DNA of 64,000 bases from an uncultured cyanobacterium (GCA_963710605.1 CAVQBA010000005.1:128001-192000), one strand, 5' to 3'. Shown: positions 6,355-59,103, numbered from the stretch's first letter. The notes: a model not told the origin generated them from the letters alone. Program-made: numbers and translations.

Positions 6355-6642
6355 TTAAATAATTTGAGCGATAATCTCTTCTAATTCCGACTTGTCTAAA
6401 CTGGTAATGATAAATACTTCTTGAACACTTTTACCACATCTAGCGATTAATTTATGTCCTCCATAAATTGGTACAGATACCTTTAATCTCATCTTAGGAG
6501 AATGCAATCGAGAACGACTCAACACCGCAGGAGTAATAGTTCTCACTTCATCATATTTTACTAGTTTTTCTAAAATCGGGATCAAACCATCAATATGAGT
6601 TGAGTGATTCCAAACTATTCTACCTTGCGATGGTTTATTCAT
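6355..6642 (-). CDS. DUF2103-like protein
   Basis: GRIVWNHSTHIDGLIPILEKL; ATGA overlap with the restored clpS stop. Confidence 0.8.
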   Translation of the reverse strand: MNKPSQGRIVWNHSTHIDGLIPILEKLVKYDEVRTITPAVLSRSRLHSPKMRLKVSVPIYGGHKLIARCGKSVQEVFIITSLDKSELEEIIAQII

Positions 6643-6945
6643 GCTTGCTCCAACGGTGCCATTGTCAATCCTTCTCTGCGTAATTGTTGGTGATACATTT
6701 CAGCTTGTTCTAATCGGCCCTGTCCAGACTAATGCTTGCCCATCAAAATGAACTTGATTGGTTAATTCCCAAGCTCTATCATCAGATACATTCGGGATAT
6801 ATCTCATTAAGCAATTAGAAACGTGTTCAAATGTATTAAAATCATCATTCAGAACAATTACTTTAAAATTGGGGTAAGTTTTTTTAATAACTTGGGGAGA
6901 TTTAGTTGGAGAAATGATACTAGTTGCCAAAATAGTCGCACTCAT
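6639..6945 (-). CDS. clpS: Clp protease adaptor ClpS (apparent +1 frameshift near 6712)
   Basis: KVIVLNDDFNTFEHV..HFDGQALVWTGP, then in the shifted frame EQAEMYHQQLRREGLTMAPLEQA*. Confidence 0.92.
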
Positions 6946-7061
6946 AACTTAATACAAATAAATTTAGTGATTAAAACTTGAAGATTTCGTTTAACCTTAT
7001 TTTTAATATATACCACATTTTATCTCAATTGTATAGACCTAATATTTAAAATCAGGCTAAT

Positions 7062-7388
7062 TTAAGAACAACTATTAGAACGAGTAGGAGACAATATTGC
7101 TGAGCGTCTAAATTCAGCTAAATACTGTTCTAGAAGTACTAATTGAGCTACATTTAAACTATAATAAGTCCAACGTCCTTGCTGACGGCTGTGAACTAAA
7201 TTAGTCTCACGCAAAGTTTTGAGATGGAAAGATAATTTAGACTGAGGAATATCTAAAATCTGAGTAATTTCACAAACACATAATTCTTTAGTACGTAATA
7301 AATCTAGTACTTGTAATCTAATGTTATCTGATAAAGCATGAAAACCCATTATCAGTAACTCTTGTTGGTTAATAGTAGTTGATGTCAT
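7062..7388 (-). CDS. ArsR/SmtB family regulator
   Basis: FHALSD..R, ELCVCEI, QSKLSFHLKTL, RQQGRWTYYSL. Confidence 0.92.
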   Translation of the reverse strand: MTSTTINQQELLIMGFHALSDNIRLQVLDLLRTKELCVCEITQILDIPQSKLSFHLKTLRETNLVHSRQQGRWTYYSLNVAQLVLLEQYLAEFRRSAILSPTRSNSCS

Positions 7389-7506
7389 CTGTATGCTTAT
7401 AAATTATAAATTGTCATCTAATTATAGAAAAATTAAAGTAATTATGTTGATTGAGCAAAAAAACTCAAGTCAACTTTAAATCAAACTAGTTTTTTCCTGT
7501 AAGCTA

Positions 7507-8160
7507 TTAATCTAGAATTGTACAAACTTTGGCACGATAAAGTAATCTATCTTGATGACGATAACCTAGATAACGAATTTTGACAGGTTGAGCAGATTCA
7601 ACATTAGAATCTGAAGAATAAATTAATTCATGTTCTTGAGGATTATAATCAACTATTTCTCCTACTTTACCAATCGGATAAACTTGCCAATCTAATAATA
7701 AGTCGTTTAATGGTGTTAGTAAAGGTATTAGTTTGCTAACGGGAATACGAGGATTTTTTTCTGAAACATAGATGAATGTTGGCAGTTGCAAGATTAAAGA
7801 CTCTAAGATAGACAATGCTTCTTGTTGATATTCGTATCTTCTGTTGTTTTCTTCTTCTTCTTTTGCTTCTTCCTTTACTTCTTCTTGTTGTAATAGTATT
7901 TGATCACGATCGTTATCTTCACTTAAACTATCAATTAAAGTATTAAGCGAAATTTGTAAACTAGCGGCAATTTTCTTTAAAATTCCCAAAGAAATACTAT
8001 CTAGTAAACCATTTTCCAGACGGTACAATTGTACAGGAGAAATATCAGCGATTTTACTCAATTGCTGATAATTATTAATTTTAGCTTCAGTCATCCATTG
8101 TTGTAAGACAGATGATATATAATTGTGATTACTATTTTTCATAACCAGTTTCTCATTCAA
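7507..8160 (-). CDS. XRE-type HTH protein with C-terminal GrpE-like domain
   Basis: QLYRLENG..LKKIAASL; IGKVGEIVDYNPQEH..VKIRYLGY..LLYRAKV. Confidence 0.75.
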   Translation of the reverse strand: MNEKLVMKNSNHNYISSVLQQWMTEAKINNYQQLSKIADISPVQLYRLENGLLDSISLGILKKIAASLQISLNTLIDSLSEDNDRDQILLQQEEVKEEAKEEEENNRRYEYQQEALSILESLILQLPTFIYVSEKNPRIPVSKLIPLLTPLNDLLLDWQVYPIGKVGEIVDYNPQEHELIYSSDSNVESAQPVKIRYLGYRHQDRLLYRAKVCTILD

Positions 8161-8304
8161 TTTAAATTACAAATAATTAATTCCTAGATTGTTATTAATC
8201 AAATATTATTTTGTCATTTATTAAGGCAAATATATCAGGGCGAATAAATTTGATCTAGTCTTTAACAAATATATATATTTTCTCTTATATTTTCAATATT
8301 ACTA

Positions 8305-9114
8305 ATGACAGAGTTCAATCAATTTCCTCAGATACCTATTTCACCTAGAGTATCGATTAACGAATTTTTTGGGATTAAGCAATATAGTTTATTCCACACT
8401 CTCAAAAAACCACAATTTACCGGTGAATTAAAGCTAATTTCCCCAAGAAAAGAACAATGGACTTTTTATCTTTATTTAGGAAGAATTATTTATGCGACAG
8501 GAGGAAAACATTCGGTAAGAAGATGGTGTAGAAATGTTAACAAAGTTGCCCCTAGTTTGGTTAATCAGTTGTCATCACTTAATAATCACATTTTTGAACA
8601 AACACAATTTAGACGTTATTGGGAATATGAATTAATTAACTATTTACTGACTCAAAATATGATTACCACTGTCCAAATTAATCAAATTATTCGGGGAATA
8701 CTTTTAGAAATTTTTTTTGATATTAGCCAACAAATGGAAGTTGTTTTTGAGCTAACCGAAAATAAACCTTTATCAACTCAATTAGTGTTTATTAATTCTG
8801 ATCAAATTATTCTAGAAGCCGCTGAAGTTTGGAATAAATGGACAGAAGCGAAATTAGCCGATCGTTCTCCTAATTTTAGCCCCATAATCCTTCAATTTCA
8901 AGAGTTGCAAAAACGGACTTCTGCTCATAGTTATCGAATGATGTTTGATTCATTTAATGGGAAAAAAACGCTACGTGATTTGAGTATTGAGTTAAATCAA
9001 GAAATCTCTTTTCTGACTAAAGTTATTTTACCCTACATTCAACGAGGTTTAATCGATTTAGTCGCAATACCTGATTTGCCTTGCCCACTTAAAAAGTTAA
9101 GAGTTAAAAGTTAA
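8305..9114 (+). CDS. PatA N-terminal (PATAN/DUF4388) protein lacking a receiver domain
   Basis: FTGEL, YLGRIIYATGGKHSVRRW, WEYEL, DRSPN, TLRDL; aligns by eye with the N-terminal part of 11479-12669. Confidence 0.85.
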   Translation: MTEFNQFPQIPISPRVSINEFFGIKQYSLFHTLKKPQFTGELKLISPRKEQWTFYLYLGRIIYATGGKHSVRRWCRNVNKVAPSLVNQLSSLNNHIFEQTQFRRYWEYELINYLLTQNMITTVQINQIIRGILLEIFFDISQQMEVVFELTENKPLSTQLVFINSDQIILEAAEVWNKWTEAKLADRSPNFSPIILQFQELQKRTSAHSYRMMFDSFNGKKTLRDLSIELNQEISFLTKVILPYIQRGLIDLVAIPDLPCPLKKLRVKS

Positions 9115-9149
9115 AAGTTAAGAAATTTACTATCTCTAACAGCTAAAAC

Positions 9150-10259
9150 CTAACACCTTAGTAAGTGTTGAATCAAAGCGTCATTTTCAGTTTTTGTACC
9201 AAGAGAAATTCTTAATCCTCCACCTGTATGTCTAATTAAAATACCTTTTGCTTTTAACTGAGCCAAAATCTGATTATGATTATCAACATTGGGATTATTA
9301 GCTAAACGCAAGTAAATAAAATTAGCATCACTTTGCCAAACTTGAAATTGTTCAGACGCATTTAATACGTCATATAAACGGTTTTTTTCAGCCATGAGTT
9401 GTTCTACACTAGGAAGAATAGCATGACGGTTTTCGAGGGCAAATTGAGCAGTTAGCTGAGAAAATGTAGGTAGGTTATAAGGTAAACGAATTTTTTCGAG
9501 AATATTAATTAGATTAGGATGAGCGATGGCATATCCGACTCGATGGGCGGCTAAACGAAAAGCTTTAGAAAAAGTACGTAATATCAACCAATTAGGATTA
9601 TCTGGTAATTCATTTACCAAAGTTTGTTGACTAAACTCATAATAAGCTTCATCAATGACAACTAAGATATCACGATCGAGATTTTTTAACCATTCAATTT
9701 CATCTATCGTCAAACAATTAGCCGTCGGTGAATTAGGATGCACCACAAACACAACCTTGACTGGAGGATTAGTTGTTTGTTTAATCATTTGATTGGCTTT
9801 ATCTATATCCCAACTAAAATCAGACTCTTTTCTGTCGATATTAATCACAGGAATACCCAAAGTCTGTGCCAAAATTCGATACATCGAAAAAGTCGGGTTA
9901 GCAACCATAATTGAACCGTTTTGATTTAAGCTAGTTGCCATCAAAAGCAATCGAATTAGTTCATCAGAACCATTACCTACTGAAATATTTTGATGATTAA
10001 TAATCTGAGTTAAGGATGCACTTTCATTCACATATTCAGCAATCAAACTTTTAAGGCGAAAGTGACTACCATCAGGATAACGATTAGTTTCTAAATTATT
10101 TTCGTAAAATAAAGCTAACTTAGTTTTTAATTCATCAGGAAGATTAAGAGGGCTTTCATTCGCATCTAAGCGAATTAATTTAGTTTGATTTTAATCAATA
10201 GGGGTAGGAGTATAAGCCGATAAACTTAATAAATCTTCCCTAATAAAAGATAAGTCCAT
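9150..10259 (-). CDS. hisC: histidinol-phosphate aminotransferase (in-frame TAA at codon 23, 10191-10193)
   Basis: MDLSFIREDL..AYTP..*..RLDANESP..NRYPDG in frame with GNGSDELI, PNSPT, DEAYYEF, RTFSKAFRLAAHRVGY. Confidence 0.92.
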
Positions 10260-10393
10260 AGGTAATAAATAATTAATAATGAATAATTAATAATGAAGAA
10301 ATTGAGTATAAGTATATTGATTCTCAATTGTGAATTATAAATTTAAAACCAAGAGTAAATTTTTAACTTTCTTAGAGCTTATAGCTGTAATAA

Positions 10394-11311
10394 TTAACTA
10401 TCTATCGCCACAACTATTTCGTTTTCTTCGATCAAAGTTTGAGTAAGTAAAGGAAAATCAAGACTTTCTCTTTGAGCGAGATATTGATGGGCAACTTCAC
10501 GAGCTAAGTTACGAATTCTACCAATATAACGTGTTCTTTCAGTTACAGCAATAACTCCTCTAGCATCAAGTAAATTAAAACAATGAGAGCATTTTAAAAC
10601 GTAATCAAGGCTAGGTAAAACTAAGTTTTTTTCGGTTAGTTGTTTAGCTTCCTCTTCGTATAGGTTAAATAACTTAAATAATAAATCGGGATTAGAAGCT
10701 TCAAAATTATAAGTACATTGTTCGATTTCTCCTTGCAAGAAAATATCGCCATATTTAATTTTGTCATTCCATTGAATATCATAAATTCAATCGACATCTT
10801 GTAAATACATCGCTAATCTTTCCAAACCATAGGTAATTTCGATCGAAACAGGTTGACAATCAATACCACCACATTGTTGAAAATAGGTAAACTGAGTAAT
10901 TTCCATTCCATCTAACCAAACTTCCCAACCAACACCCCAAGCACCAAGAGTAGGAGATTCCCAGTTGTCTTCTACAAAGCGAATATCATGATCTTCTGGG
11001 TGAATTCCTAAGGCTTTTAAAGATTCTAAATATAATTCTTGAATATTATCAGGAGAAGGTTTAATTAATACTTGATATTGATAATAATGTTGAACTCGAT
11101 TGGGATTTTCACCATATCGTCCGTCTGTTGGACGACGGCAAGGCTCTATATAAGCTACAGCCCAAGGCTCAGGTTCGATCGCTCTTAAAAAAGTATTATG
11201 ACTCATCGTACCCGCACCTTTTTCCGTATCGTAAGGTTGGGCAATCAAACAAGATTGATCACTCCAAAATTGATTTAAAGTCGTAATAATATTTTGAAAA
11301 TTAATAGTCAT
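10394..11311 (-). CDS. glyQ: glycyl-tRNA synthetase alpha subunit (in-frame TGA at 10787-10789)
   Basis: [70 protein letters not shown]; both ORF-track pieces are in one frame. Confidence 0.96.
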
Positions 11312-11478
11312 GAAATCAGATATTTAATTATAAAGTAACTGTAAAGTTGATCTCAAAATAGAGAATTTTAACTAGAATAAGAATAGTTACGCAAACAAGC
11401 AAATTAAAAAATAATATAGAAGTCATTTTTTATATTATGATTAATTAAACTTTTGCTCTCATTACTTCTAATTTATCA

Positions 11479-12669
11479 TTGATGGATACGTCCTACCAAG
11501 AAAACTATAACGTACCGATTAAAGGGTTTGTGGGAGAGAAGCAAACTTATATTTTCAATGTGTTTAAACAACACAAATTTAGTGGTGAAGTAAAATTTGT
11601 CTATCATGATCATGCTCAATGGCGTTTTTATCTGTCCATGGGGCGTTTAGTTTGTGCCACAGGAGGAGAGCATTCTGTTAGACGTTGGCGACGAAATTTG
11701 GTAATTTATCTACCAGAAATTGCTCAAGATACTGCTTATTTACAGGCACAAATCAAATCGATTAATGCTGATAACGTTAGATTTTGTTGGGAGTATGAAT
11801 TATTACGCCGTTGGGTAATAGAAGGTAGAGTCAATCGAGATGCGGCTGTCAAAATGATTGCCAATATTATGAGTGAGATACTTTTTGATCTTAGTCAATC
11901 TTCAGAAATTACTTTTCATATGGACAAAAATATAGTTGTACCAATTGATGAGCAAATTTGTTTATTTGACTCTCAAGATATAATTGCTTCTGCTTGGCAA
12001 AACTGGCGACAATGGCTTAGAGTAGGTATGAGCGATCGTTCTCCTAATAAAGCAGTTGTCATTCGTTTAGCAGAACAATTACAACAAAAAACTACACCCA
12101 AAACCTATAAAATTTTCACCAAATTATTTAATGGTAGATCGACACTTAGAGATTTAGCTATCAAACTTAAAAAAGATGTTTATCGCTTAAGTGCTTCACT
12201 GTTACCATATATTCAAGAAGGATATATCGATTTAGTATCCATACCTGATTTACCATCACCGATAATACCTCCTACTCCCGAAACATTATCTTCTAAAGAA
12301 TTTCTTCCTTTGATTGTTTGTATTGACGATAGCCCGATGATTTGTGAAACAATGGGTGTTTTACTAGTCAAAGCAGGTTACAAGTTTGTCGGTATCACCG
12401 AACCATTGAAAGCAATTTCTCAGATTCTTACTCTCAAACCTGATGCTATTTTTCTAGATTTAATGATGCCTAATACTAATGGTTACGAAATCTGTTCTAA
12501 TTTGAGAAAATCATCGGCTTTGAAAAATACCCCTATTATTATTCTTACTTCAAATGATGGCATGATTGAAAGATTAAGAAGTAAAATTACTGGCGCTTCG
12601 GATTTTATGGCAAAACCAATCAATGCTCAAAAAGTCGTGGCGATGATTAATAAACATTTACACAATTGA
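11479..12669 (+). CDS. PatA-family response regulator (PATAN + REC)
   Basis: ATGGEHSVRRW; REC domain CIDDS..FLDLMMP..GYEIC..KP intact. Confidence 0.9.
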   Translation: MMDTSYQENYNVPIKGFVGEKQTYIFNVFKQHKFSGEVKFVYHDHAQWRFYLSMGRLVCATGGEHSVRRWRRNLVIYLPEIAQDTAYLQAQIKSINADNVRFCWEYELLRRWVIEGRVNRDAAVKMIANIMSEILFDLSQSSEITFHMDKNIVVPIDEQICLFDSQDIIASAWQNWRQWLRVGMSDRSPNKAVVIRLAEQLQQKTTPKTYKIFTKLFNGRSTLRDLAIKLKKDVYRLSASLLPYIQEGYIDLVSIPDLPSPIIPPTPETLSSKEFLPLIVCIDDSPMICETMGVLLVKAGYKFVGITEPLKAISQILTLKPDAIFLDLMMPNTNGYEICSNLRKSSALKNTPIIILTSNDGMIERLRSKITGASDFMAKPINAQKVVAMINKHLHN

Positions 12670-12754
12670 CAATTATGACTTTCATCAATCCGAATTAAGG
12701 TTATAATCCAGAAAATACTAACATCTAATGCTTAACGCCTAACACCTTATTTAC

Positions 12755-15727: not shown

Positions 15728-15736
15728 TAGCTAAGT

Positions 15737-32482: not shown

Positions 32483-34654
32483 TCATTTATTAATTTCTAA
32501 TTGATTAGTTTCTAATTGATAATAATAATTATGGGATTCTTTGGGTGAAACCTTTCCATTAATAACCATTCCTAAAACTTTTTGTTCTGATTGTTGTAAT
32601 ATATATTTAGCAAGATTAGCATTTTCATAATCAAGTAATTCAGTTCTTGCTACTAACAAAACTCCATCAGCGATCGATGCTATATTAACAGCATCTACAA
32701 ATAAGTTCAAAGGAGGAGTATCAACAAGAATGTAGTCATAATCGTGAGAAATATCTTTTAGAAAAGTCTTTATTTGCAAATGACGAGCTTTCATTTTATT
32801 ATTCTCATCGATCGATCCTGGTCTGAATAAATCAAGTTCTTTTTCTACTTCTACTATTGCTTTTCGAGGATCTATCTTATTCTCTGTAGTATCATCTAAA
32901 GTCATATTTTCTTCAACATCCCAAATTTTATACTGAGAAGCATGCCGAAAATTCCAATCAACAATTAGTACCTTAAGCCCTAATTGATTTATTGCCATCG
33001 CTAAATTAGCTACTACTGTGGATGTACCTTCTCTAGGAACGGAGCTAGTCACTACAATAAACTTGTTCTGAGAATCTGAATGTTTTAGTTTTAAATTAGT
33101 AAAAAGAACTTGGTAGGATTGACTAATAAAAGAGTTTGGATTTTCTCTAACAACAATTTGAGGAGTCGGTTGTTTCAAAGTAAAATGGGTATAAGATTTA
33201 TTGACAAATGGAATCAATCCTAATATAGGATATCCAAATAAATTTTTGGCTTGTTCTGCGGTTTTAATTGATTTGTCAATGGCTTCCAAGGCAATTATGG
33301 TTAAAAAACCAGAAACTATAGCGAACAAAAAACTCCTAGTTATATACTGATTTCTATTAGGAGAGAAGGGTCGCTCTGGAACTAAAGCTTTGGACATCAA
33401 ACTAACATTTACCAGATTCTGGTTCTCTTCTATTCTAATTTCTTCAAGTTTTTGTAAAAGCGAAGTATAACTTGACTGAGCAATTTGTAATCGACTTTCT
33501 AATTCCCTTTCTTTTTGTTTTAACTGAGGAATAATTGTTAACTTTGTCTCATTGTCAACTTTTTTCTGAGATAAAGCCTTTATTTGACTTAACAAACCCA
33601 AACGTTTGATTTCTAATTGAACCAACTGTGAGGTAAGATCTTGTTGCAGTTGTCCGAATTGTTGAGAATTTTTAGATTGTGACTGTCCTGATGAAGGTAC
33701 ACCAATTGCGGCTAATCTTTCGTTTAATAATTCTTGTAATGCTTGTCGCTTATTTTTTAAATCTATAATTACAGGATTTTCTTCTGTAAAAATTGTTCGG
33801 TTTACTTTTAGTTGTGCTTCTGTTTGTTGAAGTTCTCCGAGTACTCCTTGAATACCTGGGTTTTGAGTAATAATTGTTGCTGTTACAGATTCTTTCACAT
33901 ACATTTCCAATTGTTTTTCAATTGCTTGTATCTGAGTATTAGTTTCTGCTAGAGCTATTTGGGCTTGACTAATCTGTTGCTGTTGTTGACTCAAAGCTGA
34001 TAATTTTGAAGTTGTTTCTGCGGTTAAATCAACAATCTGATTATCATTTTTAAAACGACGTAAATTTTCTTCGGCTTTGATGAGGTTTGCCTCTAGTTCG
34101 GGTAACTGATTTTCAATAAATTCTTTTCCTGTTGATGTTTGAGAACGCGTAAGTTCTTGATTTTTTTCTAGGTAAATTTCAACTAAATTATTAACTGCTG
34201 AGGCTACTTTTTGTGGGTCAGTACCAACATAACTTACTTCTAAGATATCAGTACCTGCTAAAGCTTGGATTGAAAAATTTCTGCGGAATCGCTCGTATTC
34301 ATTATTGGTTAACTCAGTATTGTTACCCGATCGTAATTGATTTTGCTTAACCACTTCTTCAATTATAGGAACAGCAAGCATCTTTTCGGATTCAGTTGTT
34401 AAAGGACTTCCAACTAGGTTATCTACTTGTCCTATTTCTTCACCTACTCCCGTAATTGAGGCGGTGGGGTCTTGTTGTTTAACTAAAAGCTTAGCATTAG
34501 CTCTATACAAAGGAGTTTCTAAAAACAAACTTAAGCCAGATAGCACAAAAACAACGATAGAAATACCACTAGCTGGTAACCAATGACGTTTTAAAATAAC
34601 TAAGTATTTGCTGATATCAAAATATTGTGATTCTTCGTTAAAATTTTCTATCAT
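32483..34654 (-). CDS. wzc: Wzc/GumC-like polysaccharide co-polymerase with degenerate kinase motifs
   Basis: Two TMs around a coiled coil; VTSSVPREGTST, VDWNFR, LVDTPP, C-terminal NYYY. Confidence 0.88.
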   Translation of the reverse strand: MIENFNEESQYFDISKYLVILKRHWLPASGISIVVFVLSGLSLFLETPLYRANAKLLVKQQDPTASITGVGEEIGQVDNLVGSPLTTESEKMLAVPIIEEVVKQNQLRSGNNTELTNNEYERFRRNFSIQALAGTDILEVSYVGTDPQKVASAVNNLVEIYLEKNQELTRSQTSTGKEFIENQLPELEANLIKAEENLRRFKNDNQIVDLTAETTSKLSALSQQQQQISQAQIALAETNTQIQAIEKQLEMYVKESVTATIITQNPGIQGVLGELQQTEAQLKVNRTIFTEENPVIIDLKNKRQALQELLNERLAAIGVPSSGQSQSKNSQQFGQLQQDLTSQLVQLEIKRLGLLSQIKALSQKKVDNETKLTIIPQLKQKERELESRLQIAQSSYTSLLQKLEEIRIEENQNLVNVSLMSKALVPERPFSPNRNQYITRSFLFAIVSGFLTIIALEAIDKSIKTAEQAKNLFGYPILGLIPFVNKSYTHFTLKQPTPQIVVRENPNSFISQSYQVLFTNLKLKHSDSQNKFIVVTSSVPREGTSTVVANLAMAINQLGLKVLIVDWNFRHASQYKIWDVEENMTLDDTTENKIDPRKAIVEVEKELDLFRPGSIDENNKMKARHLQIKTFLKDISHDYDYILVDTPPLNLFVDAVNIASIADGVLLVARTELLDYENANLAKYILQQSEQKVLGMVINGKVSPKESHNYYYQLETNQLEINK

Positions 34655-38041: not shown

Positions 38042-38664
38042 TCACGAGTAATCTTTGAATTTGGTCATGGTAGCATGATTTGGATGAGAAATTCCTTCTC
38101 TTTGTAAAACTTTGACCACAGTTATTAGCAAAATCTTAAAATCCAACCAAAGACTCCAATTATCTATATACCAGACATCTAGTTTCAATTTTTTTCCCAA
38201 TTAAGAGCATTACGACCATTTACCTGAGCCCAACCAGTTATTCCAGGTAGAACATCGTGTCTGCGTGCTTGTTCTGGATTATATCAATCGAGGTATTCTA
38301 CTAACAAGGGGCGAGGACCAACTAAACTCATCTCACCTTTAATTACATTCCCAAGTTGTGGAAGTTCATCTAAACTTGTTTTGCGTAGAAATTGACCTAA
38401 AGTAGTAAGACGTTGTTTGTCAGGAAGAAGATTTCCCGCTGAATCAGATTTACTATTCATACTACGGAACTTATAGAAGTTAAAAATTTGGCTCTGTTTA
38501 CCAGGACGAGGTTGAACAAACAAAACTGGGCTACCCATACGCAGTCTAATTACGATCGCAGTTACTAGCATGACAGGAAAGAAAAGTATCAAAATAATCA
38601 AGGATACTAGTCTATCTGCGACTATCTTGATTATTTTTGCTAAGGTATTTTTACTATTTTTCAT
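38042..38664 (-). pseudogene. PglC/WcaJ-type phosphoglycosyl transferase with in-frame TGA (38284) and -1 frameshift in an A7 run (~38190); possibly artefactual
   Basis: [48 protein letters not shown] / LDVWYIDNWSLWLDFKIL. Confidence 0.88.
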
Positions 38665-39608: not shown

Positions 39609-40692
39609 ATGAATTGTAAAATCATTAGTGTTAACGATCCTTTATGGATATATTTATTAAAAACTATTCCTCATGATATTTATCACTTACCCCATTATGT
39701 CTGGTTAGAAGCACAGAGAATTAAAGCTATTCCTAAAGCTATCGTCATTTTAGAACAAGAGAAAATTTTCTTTTTACCTTATTTACAGCGTAAAATTGAG
39801 CAATTATCGGCAGAAAAATCAAACAGTCTTGAATTATTTGATGTTATTTCACCTTATGGCTATCCGGGAATATTATTAAATGAGCCAGCAAGTAAATGTT
39901 CTCAGTTTTTAAACTTAGCTATCGATAAACTAATTAATGAGTTATCTCAAAAGAATATTTGTTCGGCATTTTTGCGTTTGCATCCACTTCTTAATTGTAA
40001 TTATCACAAAATTTTTTCTCCTCAAATTTGTCACTTGGGTGGAGAGACTGTATCGATCGATCTTACTTTAGAAAAAGAGCAGATTCTTACTCAAACTAGA
40101 TCTAGGTTTCGCACTCAGATTAATAAATCTATTCACGACGGATTTGAAGCAAAAATGGTGAGTTTTCGAAATTATTTAGATGAGTTTAAAGAAATTTATC
40201 ACCAAACCATGACACGTCTTCAGGCTAATGAACTTTACTTTTTCGATTGTATCTACTTCGTTAATCTTCTCAATTTAGACGAAAATATTCATTTGTGTAT
40301 TGTTAAATTAAAAGACGAAGTGATCTTGTGCAGGATTATTCACTGAATGTTGTGGAATAGTTCAATATCATCTTGGAGGAACAAAAGATAAGTTTGTTAA
40401 ACAATCTCCTAGCAAGCTAATGCTTCATTATGTTCGCTTTTGGGCGAAAGAACGTGGCAATAAAGTATTACATTTGGGTGGTGGATTAGGTGGTAGATCT
40501 CAAGACAGCTTGTATCATTTCAAATCTGGCTTCTCGAAGCAGACAAATAATTATTCGACTTTTAGGCTCATTGTCAATCAAGAAAAATACGATCGTCTGC
40601 TTAATTCAACTGCCAAATATTTAAATCTTGAACCAAAAATAATTATTGAATCTGGTTTTTTTCCTAGCTATCGTTATCAAATCGACCCTTAA
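39609..40692 (+). CDS. FemAB-like GNAT protein (apparent +1 frameshift near 40326)
   Basis: HDIYHLP, SPYGYPG, FLRLHP; shifted frame CAGLFTECCGIVQYHLGG..LHLGGG..SLYHFKSGF. Confidence 0.82.
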
Positions 40693-42219: not shown

Positions 42220-44233
42220 ATGAATTTAAACTTAAAAAGCACCAGCATAAGAAATCGTCATTTTTTCGCAATGGATATACTAATTAATTGTCTGACCACA
42301 TCAATTGCTTTATTTCTTAGATTAGATAGTATTTCTGTTCATCATATTTCTGGTTTAGTTGTAGCTACAATTCTATTTTTAATTATCAAACAGACTGTTT
42401 TTTATAAATTTGGCTTATATAAATGTTATTGGCGTTATGCAAGTATTGATGAAGCAGAACAAATAATAAAGATGGTTTTTGCTTCTACATTATTACAAAC
42501 TGTTTTATTCTACGGTTTATATTATTCGCCTTATGCCCCCATTCGCGAGCTACCAAGATCTTTGCCTATTCTTGATGGGATGGTGACACTTATTTTACTT
42601 AGCTTACTCCGGTTCAGCCTTCGTTGGTTCGATCGAAAAAGCAAGACTAAGAAAAGAGCGAACTCTCCACACAACGGTAGTCGAGTGTTAGTGGTTGGTG
42701 CGGGAAATGCAGGTATTGCGATCGTTAAGAGGATGCAAAGTATTCCCGAACAAGATTTGCTTCCGATCGCTTTTATTGATGACGATCCTGAAAAACTGGG
42801 CTTAAATATTCAAGGAATTCCTGTCTTGGGCAACCGTAATTTAATTTCCCAAATAGTTATTCGGGAAAAAATTAACAAAATTTTGATTGCTATGCCTTCG
42901 GTTTCAGGGGAAATAATTAGAAATATATTTGATATTTGTCACGATACAAAAGTAAAAACAATAACTTTACCTAGTCTTGACGAACTAATTGATCGCAACG
43001 TACACTTGACGAGTATTAGAGAAGTAAAGATTGAAGATCTCCTTAGAAGAAAAACTATCCAAACTAACTTAAAAAATGTCACACCATTTTTCAAGAAAAA
43101 AATAGTTCTTATTACTGGAGCGGGAGATATCTATTGGTAGTGAAATATCCCGTCAAATTCTCAAATCTATGCCAGACGAAATTATTCTTTTAGGTCATGG
43201 TGAAAACTCTATCTTTTATATCGAGCAAGAGTTAAGAAATATTCTTAATAAAAATCCTCATTTTCAGGCAGTTAAACCTCGTTTGATAACCTATATTGCT
43301 GACATTCGTTGCAGAACACGTTTAGAAAAAGCTTTCAAACAATTTCGCCCCGATATAGTTTTTCATGCGGCGGCTCACAAACATGTACCTTTAATGGAAT
43401 TAAATCCAGCAGAGGCAATTACTAATAATGTTAGGGGAACAAAAAATTTACTGGATATGGCAGTAAAATACGACGTAGAAAATCTGGTAATGATTTCTTC
43501 AGATAAAGCTGTTAACCCAACTAACATAATGGGTGCCGCTAAAAGAGCCGCAGAGATGCTTGTTTTAGATACTGCCAGAAAGCAAAATAAATCTTTTGTG
43601 GTGGTTCGTTTTGGTAATGTTTTAGGTAGTCGTGGTAGTGTCATACCTACTTTTAAATCACAAATTGCGGCGGGAGGACCGGTTACTGTAACTCATCCTG
43701 AGATAACTCGTTATTTTATTACTATTCCCGAAGCAGTTCAACTAACTTTACAAGCATTATTGATGAATAACATGGGTGAAATCTTTATGCTTAATATGGA
43801 AGAATCTGTAAAAATTCTCGATCTGGCTAAAGAAATGATTCGTCTGTCTGGTTATAAATCAGAAAAAAATATCAAGATCGAATTCACGGGGCTTAGACTT
43901 GGAGAAAAGTTATATGAAGAGATGTTTCATGAAGATGAGGATTACTTACCGACTGACTCGAATCAAATTTTTGTTTGCTCTAAAGCCAGACATTTAATTC
44001 ATCCAGATTTAGATCTCATTATCCCTGAACTTTTTGATGCGGCATTTATGAACAATACTCCATTAATTATTACCTTACTAAAAGAATTAATACCAGGATA
44101 TAGACCTAATATACCTAATCAGGAACAAGAGAAAGTTTCTACTTATTCACATGCGTTTAGTCGAAAAAACATATTGCCGAATATAGATATTTCTCAGATT
44201 TTTACCCACAGTAATATCAAAATCCAAAAATAA
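42220..44233 (+). CDS. CapD/PglF/WbpM UDP-GlcNAc 4,6-dehydratase (apparent +1 frameshift near 43127)
   Basis: TM N-terminus, VGAGNAG, IEDLLRR, ITGAG/(G)SIGSEI, HAAAHKHVP, SSDKAVNP, VRFGNVLGSRGSV. Confidence 0.92.
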
Positions 44234-44271
44234 GTATAGACCATCTGAAAAAAATGAATAATATTTACAGC

Positions 44272-44318
44272 TATAGCAACAAACAAGTCAGTTAGGACAC
44301 CTCGAATCGAGTCCCCCT
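44272..44318. repeat. half copy of the TATAGC repeat abutting truncated ydcF
   Basis: 24/28 identity to 13407-13434, ending in GTCCCCCT. Confidence 0.6.
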
Positions 44319-44738
44319 CCTTACAAAAGTATCTGCCATAGTTGTAAAATTACCAACTGTATCTATTGCTTGTATATCAAAATATACGTTTTGCCGAGGA
44401 ACGCTCATCTGTCTAAGAATGGTGGGGTTTGGCTCTATATTACTCGTACATCCAGAAATCCAAATATCTAAATTAGAGTGCGATCGCCAAAATTTTCCCG
44501 CAAATCTAACTCGCTCGGCATTACCGTCTAAAACGAAAATTGCTTTTGGGGTAGGTACTTGTATCAAAGTAATGGCAAGACGTAAAGGAATAATACTACA
44601 CAAAGCGATCAATATTATTAAGCTTAAAAATAACAATGATTTCCCAAATTTAGATTTACGCAACCAATATTTTCTAGATCGTCGATCGTCATTTTTGTTT
44701 GCTATTCGACGATATTTGTACTTGTTGTACTTAGACAT
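44292..44738 (-). pseudogene. YdcF/DUF218 family protein, C-terminally truncated
   Basis: AIFVLDG..R..FA, WISG, AIDTVGNFT; lacks the downstream TS.YH..RA motif. Confidence 0.75.
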
Positions 44739-44920
44739 GATGCTGATAGAAATTTATACTTTACAAGTTTTCAAATTGATTTTGGGATCATTACCTCAAA
44801 CAGTTATCTATTATATTAAGAGGAATTAAGATTAAATAAGTCATCTTATTTGAAATAAAAATTTAAAAGCTCAAATTCTAATAGTGTGGAGATCAAAATA
44901 CCGTTGAAAATATTTTAACC

Positions 44921-52794: not shown

Positions 52795-52831
52795 AATTTA
52801 CAACATAATTAGTGAAAAGTCTTAAAAATTT

Positions 52832-53815
52832 TTAAGCAGTTTTTTCAAAACGGTTGAATAATCTACGAAATTTCTTGTATAGTATTCTAATAGTGCTGCC
52901 TAACCAACCCCACTGAGATAGTAACAATTCAATTCTTAAAGAAAGAGTCGGATTAATTTCTTTAGACGCAACTGTTGCAATAGATTTATATCTATTCGCT
53001 AAATTAATTTGATTTTTTAGGCGTAATCTAAAATATAACCTAACCATTTGATGGACTAGTAATCTTTTCAAACTCATCGAAATATCTTCTTTATCTAAAA
53101 TCTGCTTTACAAAATTTTCTTTACAATAAATAGCCCATTCTTGATCGTAATCAAAGCTTCTATGATCGCGGCTGCCTCTTCTTAAACTAGCCACAACATT
53201 CTTTATTCCAATCGGATTTTTAGCTTTACATAATGCTCTTTCAATAAAATCCGTGTCTTCAGACATTGTCATAATTTCATTCCATTTCCCCACTTTCTCA
53301 ACGAGCGAACGATCGTAAAAAACTCTTAATGTGATCGCCCAAATTTCTCCTTTAATCAGATGTTCAATTTGTTTTCTATCCGAGTAACCATAAACAGTTG
53401 AAGTTATGGAGTTATCTTCATGATTAAAAATATCGTATCCAGTCAAAATTAAGTCTGCTTCATCATTTTCAAACACTTTATTGACAGTTTCTAAAGCGTG
53501 GGGATAAATACGATCGTCTGAATCTAAAAAATAAATAAAATCACCTGTTGAAGAATCATATCCTCGATTTCTGGCTGAAGCTACTCCCGAATTATCCTGA
53601 TAAATGTAATTGATGATTAATCGATCGGGTTCGGCATTTTTTACTTTCCATTCTTGGATAACTTCTGAAGAGTCATCTGTAGAACCATCGTTAACGATTA
53701 CTACTTCAATGGGACGATATAATTGTTGTTTAACTGAATCGAGAGTTTCTTGAATTAGGTTGGCTCTGTTGTAAACTGGAATAATAATTGAGTATAGTTT
53801 ATTTGTGGGAGACAT
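52832..53815 (-). CDS. GT2 glycosyltransferase (type A, copy 3)
   Basis: IIPVYNR, FLDSDDRIYPHAL. Confidence 0.92.
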   Translation of the reverse strand: MSPTNKLYSIIIPVYNRANLIQETLDSVKQQLYRPIEVVIVNDGSTDDSSEVIQEWKVKNAEPDRLIINYIYQDNSGVASARNRGYDSSTGDFIYFLDSDDRIYPHALETVNKVFENDEADLILTGYDIFNHEDNSITSTVYGYSDRKQIEHLIKGEIWAITLRVFYDRSLVEKVGKWNEIMTMSEDTDFIERALCKAKNPIGIKNVVASLRRGSRDHRSFDYDQEWAIYCKENFVKQILDKEDISMSLKRLLVHQMVRLYFRLRLKNQINLANRYKSIATVASKEINPTLSLRIELLLSQWGWLGSTIRILYKKFRRLFNRFEKTA

Positions 53816-53859
53816 CTTGATATTATTGTATTGATAATTAGTGCTTGAAAAACGTTAAG

Positions 53860-54078
53860 TTAATTTCTTTTTTTCTTGTCTCCAAGAAAAATAAGTGTTG
53901 TGTTATCTGCAATGTTGTTCTCTTTTTGGCATTTTTCTAAAACTTGCTTCGTATTATCTGTTGAACCGTCATCTACTAAAATGATTTCGATTGAGCGATA
54001 GGTTTGAGCTTTAACACCAGTCAAAGTCTCCGTAATAAAGTTTGTCCTATTATAAGTGGGTATAATGAGAGAAAACAT
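53860..54078 (-). pseudogene. truncated copy of type B GT2
   Basis: First ~55 aa nearly identical to 51832-52794, then stop. Confidence 0.88.
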
Positions 54079-54116
54079 AGTGAGTAATAATATTAGTAAA
54101 AAGTCTTGAAAAATTA

Positions 54117-55100
54117 CTAAGTCAGTCTTTGAAAACTATTGGATAATTTACGAAATTTATGCAAAATGGAGAATATAATACTACCGAACCATCCCCACTG
54201 ACAAAGTAATAGCCTTATTCTTAAAAAAAGAGTAGGAGTTACTTTTTTAAACCCAGATGTTGCGATAGACTCGCATTTATCAGCTAATGCAATTTGATTT
54301 TCCAGTCGTAGATTACAACATACTTTAGTCATTTTACAGAATAAGAATCGTTTAAAATTCATCGAAACATCATCTTTATCTAAAATATGTTTGAGAAAAT
54401 TTCCCTGACAATAAATAGCATCTTCTAAATTATCAACCAAACTTCTATGATTTGAATTTCCCCTCCTTAAACTAGCAATCACATCCTTTATCCCTATTGG
54501 ATTTTTAGCCAAACATAATGCTCTTTGAATAAATTCAGTATCTTCATGCATTTTCATTGTTTGATTCCATTTTCCCGCTCTATTTAGGAGCGAACGATGA
54601 TAAAAAACTCTTAATGTTATTACTTTAATTTCTTTTTTGATAACATGTTCTATTTGTTTTCTATCCGGATAACCGTAAACAGTAGAAGTTATGGAGTTAT
54701 CTTCATGATTAAAAATATCATATCCAGTTAAAATTAAGTCAGCTTCATCATTCTCAAACACTTTATTTACAGTTTCTAGAGCGTGAGGATAAATACGATC
54801 GTCTGAATCCAAAAAATAAATAAAATCACCACTCGAACAGTCATATCCATTGTTTCTGGCTGAAGCTACCCCCGAATTATCCTGATAAATGTAATTAATA
54901 ATTAATTTTTCGGGTTCGGCATTTCTTGTTTTCCATTCTTGAATAACTTGTAAAGAATTATCTCTAGAGCCATCATCAACAATTACCACTTCAATAGGAC
55001 GATATAATTGTTGTTTAATTGAATCAAGAGTAGATGCAATTGTACCAGCTCGATTGTAAACTGGAATGATAATTGAGTATACTTTGTTTGTTAAAGACAT
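54117..55100 (-). CDS. GT2 glycosyltransferase (type A, copy 2)
   Basis: Close paralogue of 52832-53815. Confidence 0.92.
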   Translation of the reverse strand: MSLTNKVYSIIIPVYNRAGTIASTLDSIKQQLYRPIEVVIVDDGSRDNSLQVIQEWKTRNAEPEKLIINYIYQDNSGVASARNNGYDCSSGDFIYFLDSDDRIYPHALETVNKVFENDEADLILTGYDIFNHEDNSITSTVYGYPDRKQIEHVIKKEIKVITLRVFYHRSLLNRAGKWNQTMKMHEDTEFIQRALCLAKNPIGIKDVIASLRRGNSNHRSLVDNLEDAIYCQGNFLKHILDKDDVSMNFKRFLFCKMTKVCCNLRLENQIALADKCESIATSGFKKVTPTLFLRIRLLLCQWGWFGSIIFSILHKFRKLSNSFQRLT

Positions 55101-55139
55101 TTTGACATTGTTAATAATTAATATTAAAAAATGTTGAGT

Positions 55140-55359
55140 TTTTTTTTTCTACTTTCAAAAGAAATAAGTATTAGATAATTTAAAACATTGTACCTTTTCT
55201 TTTTAATATTTTTCTGTAAATTATTTAGTCTTATTTTTTAAACCATTATCTACCAAGATGATTTTGTTTGATAAATCTGTAGGTTTGAACTTTCACACTC
55301 AGTAAGATTTCTGTAATAAAATTTGCCTGATTATAGATAGGTATGCTGATAGAAGACAT
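55140..55359 (-). pseudogene. eroded remnant of type B GT2 (not in ORF track)
   Basis: MSSISIPIYNQANFITEILLSVKVQTYR/(frameshift)IILVDNG followed by stops. Confidence 0.8.
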
Positions 55360-55395
55360 AATTTACAACATATTGATAAAAAATATTAAAACAAC

Positions 55396-56382
55396 TTAAG
55401 TAAGTTTTTTCTTTTTACTATTAAATAATTGGCGAAATTTGTATGGAATCATGAATAATATACTGCCTGGTATTCCCCATTGGCAAAGCAATAACCTTAT
55501 TCTTAAAGAAAGAGTCGGAGTAACTTTGTTAAACCCAGACGTTGCTATAGATTCACATCTATTCGCTAATACACTTTGATTCGCTAGACGTAGTTTACAA
55601 CTTAATTTAGCCATTTTACTAATTAGTAATCTTTTAAGATTAATTGAAATATCTTCCCTATCTAAAATGTGTTTAAGAAAATTTTCTTTACAATAAACAC
55701 TTACTTCTAAAGAATGACCAAAACTTAAATGATCTGAATTACCTCTTCTCAAACTAGCAACTATATCTTTTATTCCTATCGGATTTTTGGCTAAACATAG
55801 TGCTTTTTGTATAAATTCAGTGTCTTGTCCTGATTTTATTCTTCGATCCCATTTTCCCACTTGCTTGAGGAGCGAACGGTGATAAAAAACCCTTAATGTT
55901 ATCACAACAATTTCTCCTTTAATAACATGTTCGATTTGTTTTTTATCTGAGTAACCATAAACAGTTGAAGTTATGGAGTTATCTTCATGATTAAAAATAT
56001 CGTATCCAGTCAAAATCAAGTCTGCTTCATCATTTCCAAACACTTTGTTGACAGTTTCTAAAGCGTGGGGATAAATACGATCGTCTGAATCCAAAAAATA
56101 AATAAAATCACCCGTCGAAGAATCATATCCCTTATTTCTGGCTGAAGCTGCTCCAGAATTGTTTTGATAAATGTAATTGATGATTAATCGATCTGGTTCC
56201 GCATTTTTCGTTTTCCATTCTTGAATAACTTGAGAAGAGTTATCGATCGAACCATCGTCAACAATGACTACTTCAATGGGACGATATGATTGTTGCTTAA
56301 CTGAATTAAGAGTAGCTTCAATTATATTAGCTCTATTATAAACGGGAATAATAATTGAGTATAATTTGTTTGTTGGAGACAT
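55396..56382 (-). CDS. GT2 glycosyltransferase (type A, copy 1)
   Basis: Paralogue; start set at MSPTNK by comparison with the other two copies. Confidence 0.92.
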   Translation of the reverse strand: MSPTNKLYSIIIPVYNRANIIEATLNSVKQQSYRPIEVVIVDDGSIDNSSQVIQEWKTKNAEPDRLIINYIYQNNSGAASARNKGYDSSTGDFIYFLDSDDRIYPHALETVNKVFGNDEADLILTGYDIFNHEDNSITSTVYGYSDKKQIEHVIKGEIVVITLRVFYHRSLLKQVGKWDRRIKSGQDTEFIQKALCLAKNPIGIKDIVASLRRGNSDHLSFGHSLEVSVYCKENFLKHILDREDISINLKRLLISKMAKLSCKLRLANQSVLANRCESIATSGFNKVTPTLSLRIRLLLCQWGIPGSILFMIPYKFRQLFNSKKKKLT

Positions 56383-56828
56383 TTTGACATTATTAATTAT
56401 TAATACTAAAGAACACTTGAATATTCGTATCAATTTTATATTCTATTGTATGTATTATACTTAAAACTGAATAAACTATTGACGGCTAATTTTTAATACC
56501 TTCTCTTACTAAATATGATTATTCTGGGAAAGGGATAAAATGTTTTTATCAAAATAGTACTCCGATTGCATCATTTGATAAAGCGAAGAAAGATTTATCC
56601 TTGCCATTCTTTTTATCTACCGAATATGGCAAACTAGGGCTAATATACATTTAAAGAATCAGAAATCAAGATTAAGTCGGTCTGCATTGATAAATGAAAT
56701 TATCTTTGAACTTAATTCAGATAACAAGTTTACTCTTATCCATAAACAGAACTTTGTTTTTGACCAAAAATAATGAATCAATCTTCACGTTTGAGAAGAA
56801 AAATTATAGATTATCTCTAATTGTGTTT

Positions 56829-58034
56829 TTACTTTAGTAACAAATAATATAAATCTCCTGTCCAATCTACTAATCCTGCTTTGGTTTTAGCTACATCTCC
56901 TGTACCAAAAAATATATCCACTCTTCCTGCCCCTTTAATTGCACTACCTGTATCTTGATCTAATACATAACGACTAACAATTGGTGTCTCTACTTGTGAT
57001 TGCTGATTAATTTGTGGTATTTGGGTGTTGATTAAAGCTAAAGCACCGGGGGGCATAATACTTTTATCAGTAGCGATCGATCTTTCGTCCGTTACAGGCA
57101 CATTAAGGCTACCATAAGCTGGTCTGCCACCTGTTTCTTTAAAAAAGATAAAACGTTTGTTACGGGGTAAATAGATACTTAATTCGGCAGGATGCTCTTC
57201 TAAGTAACGAGTTAAGCGAGGCAAACTCATTTCCTCAGCAGGTACTTTACCATCTTTAATTAATTCTTTGCCTAAACTACTGTAAGGATAATCAGTCGCA
57301 CCATTGTAACCGATTGTCATAATTGTACCATCAGTTAATTCTAGTTTTGCCGAGCCTTGCACTTGGATTAAATATGCCTTGAGACGATCGTTTAACCAAA
57401 CTAATTCATCACCACGTATGGTACTATTAAAACCTAATCCGTCCGTACCTTCTAAATCACGACGAGTAGGGTGAGGTGCTTCCCAAGTTTCAAAATCACT
57501 AGGTTTTCTAAATAAGGGGTAACGATATTCAGCAGTGGGATAACGACTAGCTTTATATACAGGTTGAAAATATCCAGTAAAAGAGACTGTGCCTTGATTG
57601 TCATGCCCGACAGATTGATAAAAAACAAATTCTCTTTCGACGGCTTGTTGTAACTGTTGCGGAGTTTTAGAAGTAAATAATAAAGTGCGAAAACGTCTTA
57701 ATGAAGCAATAACTTTTTCACGACTAAACTCAGTCATCTGATAATCTTGATATGCTTGTTTAGCTTTAGCTGTGTTTAAATAAGTCAAACTATAATCAAT
57801 ACCTTTGATTAATTCTGATTTATCTTTGGTAAATAATTGTTCATCAATAATAGAAACCGAAGGTGTATCAATTCGCTGAAGAGGAAAAGCATCAAGCCGA
57901 ATATTATTAAATACCGTCAAATTGAGACTACAAGCTAATAATGAGCTATATACAATCTGATTAGACTTAAGGTTAAAAAATTGCTTCATATAAGAAGTTA
58001 ATTGGTTATTCATTTTCATCTTCTTTTTGCTCAA
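56829..58034 (-). CDS. mltA: membrane-bound lytic murein transglycosylase A
   Basis: FTGYFQP, IQVQGS, RSIATD, QDTGSAIKGAGRVDIFFG. Confidence 0.93.
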   Translation of the reverse strand: MSKKKMKMNNQLTSYMKQFFNLKSNQIVYSSLLACSLNLTVFNNIRLDAFPLQRIDTPSVSIIDEQLFTKDKSELIKGIDYSLTYLNTAKAKQAYQDYQMTEFSREKVIASLRRFRTLLFTSKTPQQLQQAVEREFVFYQSVGHDNQGTVSFTGYFQPVYKASRYPTAEYRYPLFRKPSDFETWEAPHPTRRDLEGTDGLGFNSTIRGDELVWLNDRLKAYLIQVQGSAKLELTDGTIMTIGYNGATDYPYSSLGKELIKDGKVPAEEMSLPRLTRYLEEHPAELSIYLPRNKRFIFFKETGGRPAYGSLNVPVTDERSIATDKSIMPPGALALINTQIPQINQQSQVETPIVSRYVLDQDTGSAIKGAGRVDIFFGTGDVAKTKAGLVDWTGDLYYLLLK

Positions 58035-58304
58035 CTGTTTTGATTGTATATACTAACGAAAAAAATAGACTCTAAAACAAGGGTAATAGTTTCCTTAGCC
58101 CAATTGATTAATCAAAACAAATTAACAGTAATTGATTAGTTAGTTAAAACATTTAACCGCTTCTAATCCTAACTCTCTAGTAATAAAAAAGAAAGTAATA
58201 AGCATAAAAAATAAACGATCGATTAAATAAATTTAATTCTTCACTATCAGTCATTTTCCTTGATTAGTAAGACAAAAAACGTTAGACTAGTAATATTGCT
58301 TTTA

Positions 58305-58387
58305 GCGGATGTGGCGGAATTGGTATACGCGCACGCTTGAGGGGCGTGTGGTCTTAGACCTTGCGAGTTCGAGTCTCGCCATCCGCA
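58305..58387 (+). tRNA. trnL: tRNA-Leu(GAG), CCA not encoded
   Basis: GCGGATG/CATCCGC acceptor stem, CACGC-TTGAGGG-GCGTG anticodon arm, long variable arm, GTTCGAG T-loop. Confidence 0.96.
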
Positions 58388-58529
58388 TTGTCTATCTTTA
58401 CCAGTTCGTATAGTCTTCAGAGTTTTAAGTAAAGTTAGATAAGCTGAATTGATACATTTTTGATTAGCTTGAAATAATCTACTTTTTAAAATTAAAGTCA
58501 AGTAATATTTTCATTAGCCAATATATTAA

Positions 58530-59103
58530 TCAGTTATCGATCGTTTCCTCAACAATATTACCTGAATCATCGTCAAATCGTTCAATAATTTCTAATAATT
58601 TAGCGACAACTCGATCGTATATTTTTTTACGCTGTAATAGTTTGGGTTTTTGGTTACAGGCATTGAGTACTGTTTCTCGTAAGGGTTCTTTACCTGTAAA
58701 ATGATAGGTATTAATCATCTTATCGATCGCTCGCTTCTTGGTTAAGATTTTCTGTTTGACAAAGTTCTTTTACTGCTTTAATTCGCTCTTGATGCCAAAA
58801 TTCATTAAAAATCTGTTCTAGTTTTTCCTCAGGTTCAATTTGAGGCATACGAGTATTAATAAATTTGGTAATAAGACCTCGTTTTTTTCGTAATTGGCTT
58901 TCTTTATCGAGTAACTTAAGAATAGAGTCTTTTTTCTGCTGATATTCTTGGTTTTTATTCTCGTCTTTACTTTCTTTTTGCAGTTGAGCTAATAGTTTGA
59001 GGATATAAGTTATATTGATTTCATCCCTTTGAATTAATTCTAGTTCAAATTTACCCGAACCTGTAGGATACCAAATATAACCGTGTCTCGGCTTTCTCCA
59101 CAA
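58530..59103 (-). pseudogene. hsdR: type I restriction subunit R remnant (internal deletion plus frameshift near 58730)
   Basis: GYIWYPTGSGK (helicase motif I-like) joined directly to FELELIQRDEINITYILKLL (EcoR124-type C-terminus). Confidence 0.8.

Follow-up and report, generated by a model that had tools for sequence, protein, structure and literature searches.

Gene-breaking lesions at CGATCG motifs in a cyanobacterial genome assembly are very probably consensus errors at methylated sites

Six genes, among them the glycyl-tRNA synthetase gene glyQ, the histidinol-phosphate aminotransferase gene hisC and clpS, are broken by in-frame stops or frameshifts in a stretch of DNA assembled from an uncultured cyanobacterium (GCA_963710605.1, CAVQBA010000005.1:128001-192000), and their lesions gather at the motif (C)GATC(G). 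The whole stretch, called the window hereafter, is 64,000 nt long, and all coordinates are positions in it, from 1 to 64000. Judging from the sequence patterns, these lesions are very probably not mutations but long-read consensus errors at methylated (C)GATC(G) sites, with native-DNA nanopore sequencing as the most probable source. On this basis clpS, hisC, glyQ, the sugar transferase gene, the FemAB-like gene and capD are most likely intact in the organism. A first-pass annotation of the same DNA had already proposed that a methylome footprint was left in the consensus. That reading agrees with the class and position of the changes, with their association with the motif and with how well the genes are conserved; it presumes a platform, a methylation state and intact genes. 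The six genes are the following.

6642..6945, minus strand: clpS with a +1 frameshift; the first piece matches positions 2-55 of 80 of the Pfam ClpS profile
9150..10259, minus strand: hisC (histidinol-phosphate aminotransferase), Pfam Aminotran_1_2, in a single frame throughout
10394..11311, minus strand: glyQ (glycyl-tRNA synthetase alpha), Pfam tRNA-synt_2e, with profile positions 1-170 in one piece and 189-278 in the other
38042..38664, minus strand: sugar transferase (Bac_transf), Pfam Bac_transf
39609..40692, plus strand: FemAB-like gene; the second piece matches positions 311-399 of 406 of the Pfam FemAB profile
42220..44233, plus strand: capD/pglF-type polysaccharide dehydratase with a +1 frameshift, Pfam CoA_binding_3 and Polysacc_synt_2

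All eight sites quoted in the first-pass annotation are present in the window as it described them. Its fragment pairs do represent single split genes, as Pfam matches run across the pairs, the second piece of clpS being without a match. Truncated proteins of the window were found in the protein collection, and the lesions are therefore in the deposited assembly. The marks of true pseudogenes, namely truncation, several lesions and lost conservation, are absent from glyQ, hisC, the FemAB-like gene, capD and clpS. These five genes are full length, with one disabling lesion apiece, and are otherwise conserved; in none of the full-length genes hit does the number of lesions exceed two. Both glyQ and hisC are expected to be indispensable for growth.

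The glyQ stop reads GTC-GAT-TGA, with the TGA at 10787-10789 within GTCGATTGA. Among 120 homologues, the corresponding column holds Ala (54), Ser (41), Thr (17), Arg (6), Gly (1) and Glu (1). Arg occupies this position in five of the eight closest homologues (QDVDRIYDIQW), which supports the restoration to GAT-CGA put forward earlier. A Ser codon (AGT) in two related loci, which are described below, at first seemed contrary to GAT-CGA, but closer protein homologues then showed Arg. The best-supported ancestor, though not a certain one, would thus be Arg (CGA), that is, GTCGATCGA, with CGATCGA turned into CGATTGA. The same gene carries a missense change beside GATC, recorded in the first-pass annotation as IGPEP to IEPEP and confirmed here as G46E. 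The Glu codon GAA at 11174-11176, in GCG-ATC-GAA, lies directly 3' of GCGATCG, and Gly is found in 120 of 120 homologues. In the aligned part, this is the sole departure of GlyQ from columns conserved at 95% or more.

For the sugar transferase, the case is clearer still. Its in-frame stop is CTC-GAT-TGA, with the TGA at 38284-38286 within CTCGATTGA, and the 119 homologues have Arg (108), Leu (9), Ile (1) or Tyr (1) in this column. The predominance of Arg indicates that TGA comes from CGA and that the original was CTCGATCGA (CGATCGA to CGATTGA), giving strong support to the GAT-CGA origin suggested previously. This gene also has a -1 frameshift at an A7 run (38189-38195), where the homologue consensus ...W.EKFKLDVWY needs A8; it had rightly been set apart as the point lesion that departs from the motif pattern. 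Homopolymer miscounts are a classic long-read error, and the run may reflect either real slippage or a sequencing error, two origins that look alike in the sequence.

The stop in hisC is GAT-TAA, with the TAA at 10191-10193. The 119 homologues have Glu (79), Lys (15), Asp (10), Asn (6), Gln (4), Ala (2), Ser (2) or Thr (1) at this position, and the ten closest have Glu (7), Gln (2) or Asp (1). The lesion itself is as first described, while its restoration to GAT-CAA is ambiguous, this ancestor being possible and not favoured by the homologue numbers. The change would be a transversion if the ancestor was Glu and a transition if it was Gln. HisC departs from conserved columns in two places. In S105L, the TTG codon at 9948-9950 belongs to ATT-CGA-TTG and hence to a CGATTG, where CGATCG would give the Ser that is present in 118 of the 119 homologues. 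This change is absent from the first-pass annotation and was foretold from the protein alignment prior to inspection of the DNA. The second departure, C111S (Cys in 119 of 119 homologues), has no motif nearby.

For substitutions, the association with (C)GATC(G) goes far beyond chance. As substitution anomalies we counted the three stops and the six unique departures from columns conserved at 95% or more, in the three genes with homologue sets. We compared them, by a binomial test, with the share of window positions taken up by CGATCG and one base on each side (1.36%). With the hisC stop scored as a miss, a restored CGATCG contains or adjoins four of the nine anomalies (p = 4.6e-6) and has three of the nine strictly inside it (p = 9.4e-5). 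The four on the motif are the glyQ and sugar-transferase stops, HisC S105L and GlyQ G46E. The four missense anomalies off the motif are conservative; they comprise HisC C111S and the sugar-transferase changes T68S, T70N and D111E, which have no motif nearby (K159N in the latter protein belongs to the homopolymer frameshift). Destructive changes are on the motif, and conservative ones are off it. As for codon context, the genes of the window contain 959 CAA, CAG or CGA codons, of which 39 (4.1%) are preceded by GAT. All three stops follow GAT (p = 6.7e-5, on the premise that the stops arose by C-to-T changes). Only 65 of 8716 single-base routes to a stop lie in GATC.

Where homologues fix the ancestor, all four substitutions are transitions, three C-to-T and one G-to-A on the coding strand. 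The change affects either position 5 of CGATCG or the base immediately outside the motif. On the opposite strand, this corresponds to the G between the expected 5-methylcytosine (m5C) and N6-methyladenine (m6A), a location that suits a signal artefact. Two signs of nanopore consensus errors are thus present, namely C-to-T/G-to-A transitions and a concentration at a methylation motif beyond chance. The four resolved changes all affect genes on the minus strand. As that strand has 33,396 of the 48,453 coding bases, the strand bias is uninformative either way.

There are 13 intact in-frame GAT-CGA sites versus two broken ones. Among one-off hexamers, CAATCG occurs 21 times on the plus strand versus 10.8 expected, and CGATTG 13 times versus 10.3, an excess that is suggestive only. 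At other CAATCG/CGATTG sites, GlyQ Asn71 and two Asn residues of family 2 glycosyltransferases (GT2) agree with conserved residues and are genuine, so most one-off variants of the motif are not errors. Five CAATCG sites, at 311, 6505, 11832, 24432 and 31284, are candidate hidden errors at which a restored CGATCG would alter the protein. In that order, the changes would be W73 to R in TnpB, L46 to S in a DUF2103 protein, N119 to D in a response regulator, N106 to D in a sulfotransferase and W383 to R in an ABC exporter. Relatives of the response regulator have Asp or Glu in place of N119. The loss of an Asp was at first suspected at Asn106 of the sulfotransferase (AAT in GTCAATCGA), but relatives in the PDB have Thr there, and the three sulfotransferase paralogues align too poorly to be informative.

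Three genes are affected by frameshifts near GATC. The FemAB-like gene has one extra base directly 3' of GATC (GATC at 40322-40325, TT at 40326-40327). We aligned it with 40 full-length homologues, chosen by a length of 335-390 residues from the best 78 matches. At the junction, ..EV[I/A]-CAGL.., the extra residue is present in none of the 25 homologues listed of those 40, which supports the frameshift placed earlier at about 40326. In clpS, the four bases ATTA (6711-6714, within CCGATTAGAA) occupy the place of one expected Ile or Leu codon, and the frame switches between ...VWTGP and EQAEMYHQQL.... A PDB structure of ClpS can be aligned with the first piece as far as residues 73-74. The second piece is too short to place, a PDB search returning only spurious designed repeat proteins and a Pfam search no match, and the junction is therefore drawn from the reading frames. 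The clpS lesion near 6712 matches its earlier description; its restoration to CCG-ATC-GAA, which combines a substitution with an insertion, is one of several possible, including simpler one-base insertions.

The capD frameshift lies in the Rossmann motif TGAG-G-SIG, where GATA (43126-43129) replaces one Gly codon. The first piece aligns with residues 2-38 of PDB 5bjx, the Asp of the window being opposite Gly38, and the second piece aligns from residue 39 of PDB 5bjw (PglF/WlaL, the same protein as 5bjx). This lesion, reported at about 43127, was also found as described, and again its restoration (GGA-GGA-TCT) is not unique, as GGATCT is one possible original and GGTTCT needs equally few edits. 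Viewed on the plus strand, both clpS and capD have two bases at the place of the G of a possible GATC. The gap of 687 bases between capD and the next glycosyltransferase gene (44234-44920) contains long overlapping open reading frames (ORFs) on both strands, of 177 and 153 residues from stop to stop, and neither has a Pfam match.

A mechanism for such errors can be proposed. Cyanobacterial CGATCG sites are normally methylated twice on both strands, with m5C at the first C and m6A in GATC, and the same would be expected here. The altered pore signal might cause the basecaller to read the G of GATC as A, so that the other strand would show C as T. The same G might sometimes be called as two bases, generating small indels and frame shifts. 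The outcome of a substitution would depend on the frame, with CGA to TGA producing a stop, TCG to TTG replacing Ser with Leu and ATC to ATT remaining silent. The first-pass annotation took m6A in GATC and m5C in CGATCG as established for cyanobacteria. Synechocystis does have both m5CGATCG and Gm6ATC (PMC6105098; this and the other papers are cited from excerpts of their text), its m5C being the first C of CGATCG and not the C that is changed in the window. Both GATC and CGATCG are known to be methylated in cyanobacteria other than the present one (PMC6105098, PMC4390886).

Errors of this kind have precedents. According to the excerpted reports, assemblies of several bacteria made from R10.4.1 nanopore reads only keep C-to-T and G-to-A errors at modified sites, among which GATC is dominant, with lower accuracy at its G and C. 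These errors are strand-specific in the reads and disappear after whole-genome amplification (PMC11610603). Ambiguities between two purines or two pyrimidines near methylation sites were likewise removed by PCR-based sequencing (PMC11610573). In a preprint, 28 of 28 single-nucleotide polymorphism (SNP) calls specific to native DNA were in motif units, nine of them in GATC (10.64898/2026.01.14.699587), and earlier work had linked consensus errors to methylation motifs (PMC6591954). For an artefact specifically at cyanobacterial CGATCG sites or the related highly iterated palindrome HIP1, we found no description in the literature, in searches that were not aimed at proving absence. The phenomenon is, in all likelihood, a known kind of artefact rather than a biological feature.

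The artefact does not extend to every broken gene of the window. Fragments of hsdR, TnsD and a GT2 gene are real remnants, two of which are as follows.

58530..59190, minus strand: hsdR remnant, with EcoR124_C profile positions 104-206 in the first piece and 204-260 in the second
62547..62963, minus strand: TnsD remnant, with Pfam TnsD profile positions 138-223 and 253-278 of 355

The three remnants do bear the marks of true pseudogenes: an internal deletion plus a duplication in hsdR, a match limited to profile positions 138-278 of 355 in TnsD, and to positions 1-51 of 168 in the GT2 fragment. In hsdR, GCGA-GCGA-TCG at 58724-58734 contains a 4-base tandem duplication (58727-58734) that adjoins CGATCG (58724-58729) and is backed by the abutting profile coordinates 104-206 and 204-260. 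In addition, a stretch with helicase motif I (..PTGSGK..) is fused to the C-terminal domain, which amounts to an internal deletion. The duplication near 58730 is therefore in the sequence as the first-pass annotation had it, but the gene is not intact as had been supposed. hsdR is truly dead, and its frameshift is better read as a real mutation. TnsD has an in-frame TAA at 62655-62657 without GATC context, a stop that was not mentioned earlier and that is a counter-example to the pattern. The 25 intergenic gaps (8,469 bases) gave 88 frames that run from stop to stop over 30 residues or more, and we compared these with Pfam as well. Three of the 88 matched a family, corresponding to one GT2 5' fragment and two TnsD pieces, and no further broken full-length gene was seen among these frames.

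Within 58247-59190, the hsdR remnant sits beside a tRNA-Leu(GAG) gene at 58305-58387; an ORF at 58247-58501 on the minus strand only overlaps the tRNA and is spurious. Within 62004-62963, the TnsD (Tn7-like) fragment adjoins a DUF433/DUF5615 gene pair, about 4 kb from tRNA-Leu, and this region may represent what decay has left of one end of a Tn7-like element that had inserted close to a tRNA gene.

A number of points weigh against explaining the lesions as artefacts. C-to-T is the commonest real mutation in an AT-rich genome, and a 4-base duplication such as that of hsdR is atypical as a basecalling error. The true pseudogenes (hsdR, TnsD and the GT2 fragment), together with an IS200/IS605 element, reveal some real decay in this genome. 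A Glu ancestor at the hisC stop (79 of 119 homologues versus 4 of 119 for Gln) would mean a G-to-T change and no GATC. At the glyQ stop, Arg is only a minority in the column overall (6 of 120), and glyQ of both related loci has AGT Ser. The restorations of clpS and capD take two edits each, and equally short routes that do not involve GATC exist. No methyltransferase gene was detected among the 65 ORFs and 88 gap ORFs of the window scanned with Pfam. Finally, we infer the artefact from the pattern and from plausibility only.

A first alternative is that the lesions are real and recent. CGATCG would then be a hot spot of mutation, owing either to cytosine deamination linked to methylation or to damage that a methyltransferase induces, and the lineage would be shedding genes or have been propagated under relaxed selection. 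The motif association would be equally expected in this case. The C-to-T/G-to-A class of the resolved changes is a deamination signature, and the window does contain true remnants and an IS200/IS605 element. Moreover, the sugar transferase, FemAB-like and capD genes belong to one polysaccharide cluster that is possibly dispensable in culture. We nevertheless consider real mutations unlikely. They would have knocked out glyQ and hisC, both of which are conserved apart from one disabling change. The base that is changed is position 5 of CGATCG and not the first C, which is the m5C in Synechocystis according to the excerpted report (PMC6105098), and this speaks against real m5C deamination. TGATCG and CGATCA, the expected products of m5C deamination, show no excess, with 8 and 7 copies respectively. 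Deamination also leaves unexplained the net one-base indels at clpS and capD and the extra base of the FemAB-like gene, and the motif's 20-fold excess is at odds with a hot spot that destroys about one in 10 of its sites. One might imagine instead a targeted hot spot at the internal C of CGATCG, deaminated or mis-repaired by, for instance, a methyltransferase or repair activity. Many genes would be knocked out simultaneously, and cells would survive because cyanobacteria have many copies of the chromosome, among which intact ones would be retained next to a mutated majority. This appears quite improbable to us.

Might unrelated random sequencing errors and mutations simply have fallen near a very common motif? 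GATC-like words are indeed frequent (442 GATT and 474 AATC), three of the eight reconstructions are not unique, and the pattern was picked after the sites had been seen. Coincidence is still very hard to reconcile with the observation that 1.36% of the positions hold four of the nine substitution anomalies (p = 4.6e-6), or with GAT preceding only 4.1% of the CAA, CAG and CGA codons. In addition, HisC S105L was foretold from a protein alignment and then found as CGATTG. The least credible explanation, to which we attach next to no weight, is that the DNA is correct and the genes function through recoding, frameshifting or transcript-level repair. All that favours it is that the genes look conserved on either side of each lesion. 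It would have to deal with two different stop codons and with both +1 and -1 shifts, and it does not account for the missense changes G46E and S105L at the same motif. To our knowledge, no known recoding supplies Arg or Gln/Glu, the residues expected at the stops. TAA, TGA and TAG end 35, 8 and 7, respectively, of 50 ordinary genes, and recoding was rejected because all three stop codons terminate ordinary genes. Consensus error at methylated sites thus remains the preferred explanation.

The window has a G+C content of 32.5%, and its source organism is, from the protein comparisons, a relative of the Geminocystis/Cyanobacterium group. The nearest named proteins are from Geminocystis, the closest named relative, and Cyanobacterium, with 93-94% identity between GlyQ and its closest homologues and at most 77% for HisC. 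Two related loci, with 60% identity at the protein level, came from a scan of genome contigs; one belongs to a Geminocystis metagenome-assembled genome. Both retain glyQ and the glyQ/response-regulator neighbourhood, and both are without clpS and hisC. In the window, the hisC-glyQ pair lies between two DUF4388 paralogues (8305-9114 and 11479-12669), of which the second also has a receiver domain.

The motif itself is strikingly abundant. The window contains 110 copies of CGATCG versus 5.1 expected from base composition, an excess of about 20-fold, and these account for 110 of its 224 GATC sites. A GC-rich palindrome that includes CGATCG and is in many-fold excess is characteristic of HIP1-type highly iterated palindromes, and such a palindrome is found here. 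The flanks are varied: the top 8-mer on CGATCG is TCGATCGA (17 copies), followed by TCGATCGT (16), ACGATCGT (15) and GCGATCGT (14), and canonical HIP1, GCGATCGC, has only five copies. In Geminocystis herdmanii PCC 6308, the HIP1 derivative is TCGATCGA, at 705 per Mb and an observed/expected ratio of 70 (Elhai 2015, PMC4390886, from excerpts). As this species is listed with the same derivative, the motif load is a known trait of the group.

Other parts of the window deserve mention. An IS200/IS605-type element occupies 1-1018, with a Y1 transposase gene at 527-1018 on the plus strand and the N-terminal part of a TnpB-like gene at 1-528 on the minus strand, which runs off the window. A polysaccharide locus of about 35 kb (21349-56433) encodes many GT2 and family 4 (GT4) glycosyltransferases, three sulfotransferases, a Wzy-like protein, an ABC exporter, a radical SAM/SPASM protein and WbsX, and also a Wzz/tyrosine-kinase-type protein (32483-34654). 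Its gene content suggests that it is probably a sulfated exopolysaccharide cluster. Three tandem GT2 paralogues at 52832-56433 are joined by the 5' GT2 fragment at 53863-54135.

The significance of these observations lies mainly in genome quality. If our interpretation is correct, approximately one in 10 CGATCG sites in detectable frames would be miscalled (two broken versus 13 intact GAT-CGA sites, plus one CGA-TTG). The essential genes glyQ, hisC and clpS, as well as the polysaccharide cluster, would be wrongly annotated as pseudogenes. Silent and missense errors would go unseen, and pseudogene counts, ratios of nonsynonymous to synonymous substitution rates (dN/dS) and strain SNPs would be biased. 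The artefact should be unusually frequent in cyanobacteria of the HIP1 type, in which doubly methylated sites number in the thousands, and this calls for flagging assemblies based on native nanopore reads only. If the lesions were real, a motif-directed mutator of essential genes would be remarkable, but the evidence speaks against it.

Several known systems offer points of comparison. Homopolymer-length errors of long-read consensus sequences resemble the A7 run in the sugar transferase where homologues need A8, but only one of the seven point lesions in full-length genes is of the homopolymer kind. With hot spots of m5C deamination, the window shares C-to-T transitions linked to a methylation motif. 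It differs from them in that position 5 is changed, that essential genes are hit and that indels occur at the same sites. Like the HIP1/TCGATCGA system of G. herdmanii, the window has a hyperabundant palindrome based on CGATCG with TCGATCGA as the commonest 8-mer. Here, however, the excess resides in the 6-mer with its varied flanks, canonical HIP1 being rare, and CGATCG is denser (110 per 64 kb) than the 8-mer is stated to be in G. herdmanii. The closest parallel is with the methylation errors of R10.4.1 nanopore sequencing. The published cases, as far as the excerpts go, are heterotrophic bacteria with Dam-type GATC methylation, whereas the sites in the window are mostly CGATCG, at which both m5C and m6A are expected; the window, whose platform is presumed, also shows small indels beside the substitutions. 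Despite these differences, the kind of change, the bases affected and the motif are the same as in the reported nanopore errors.

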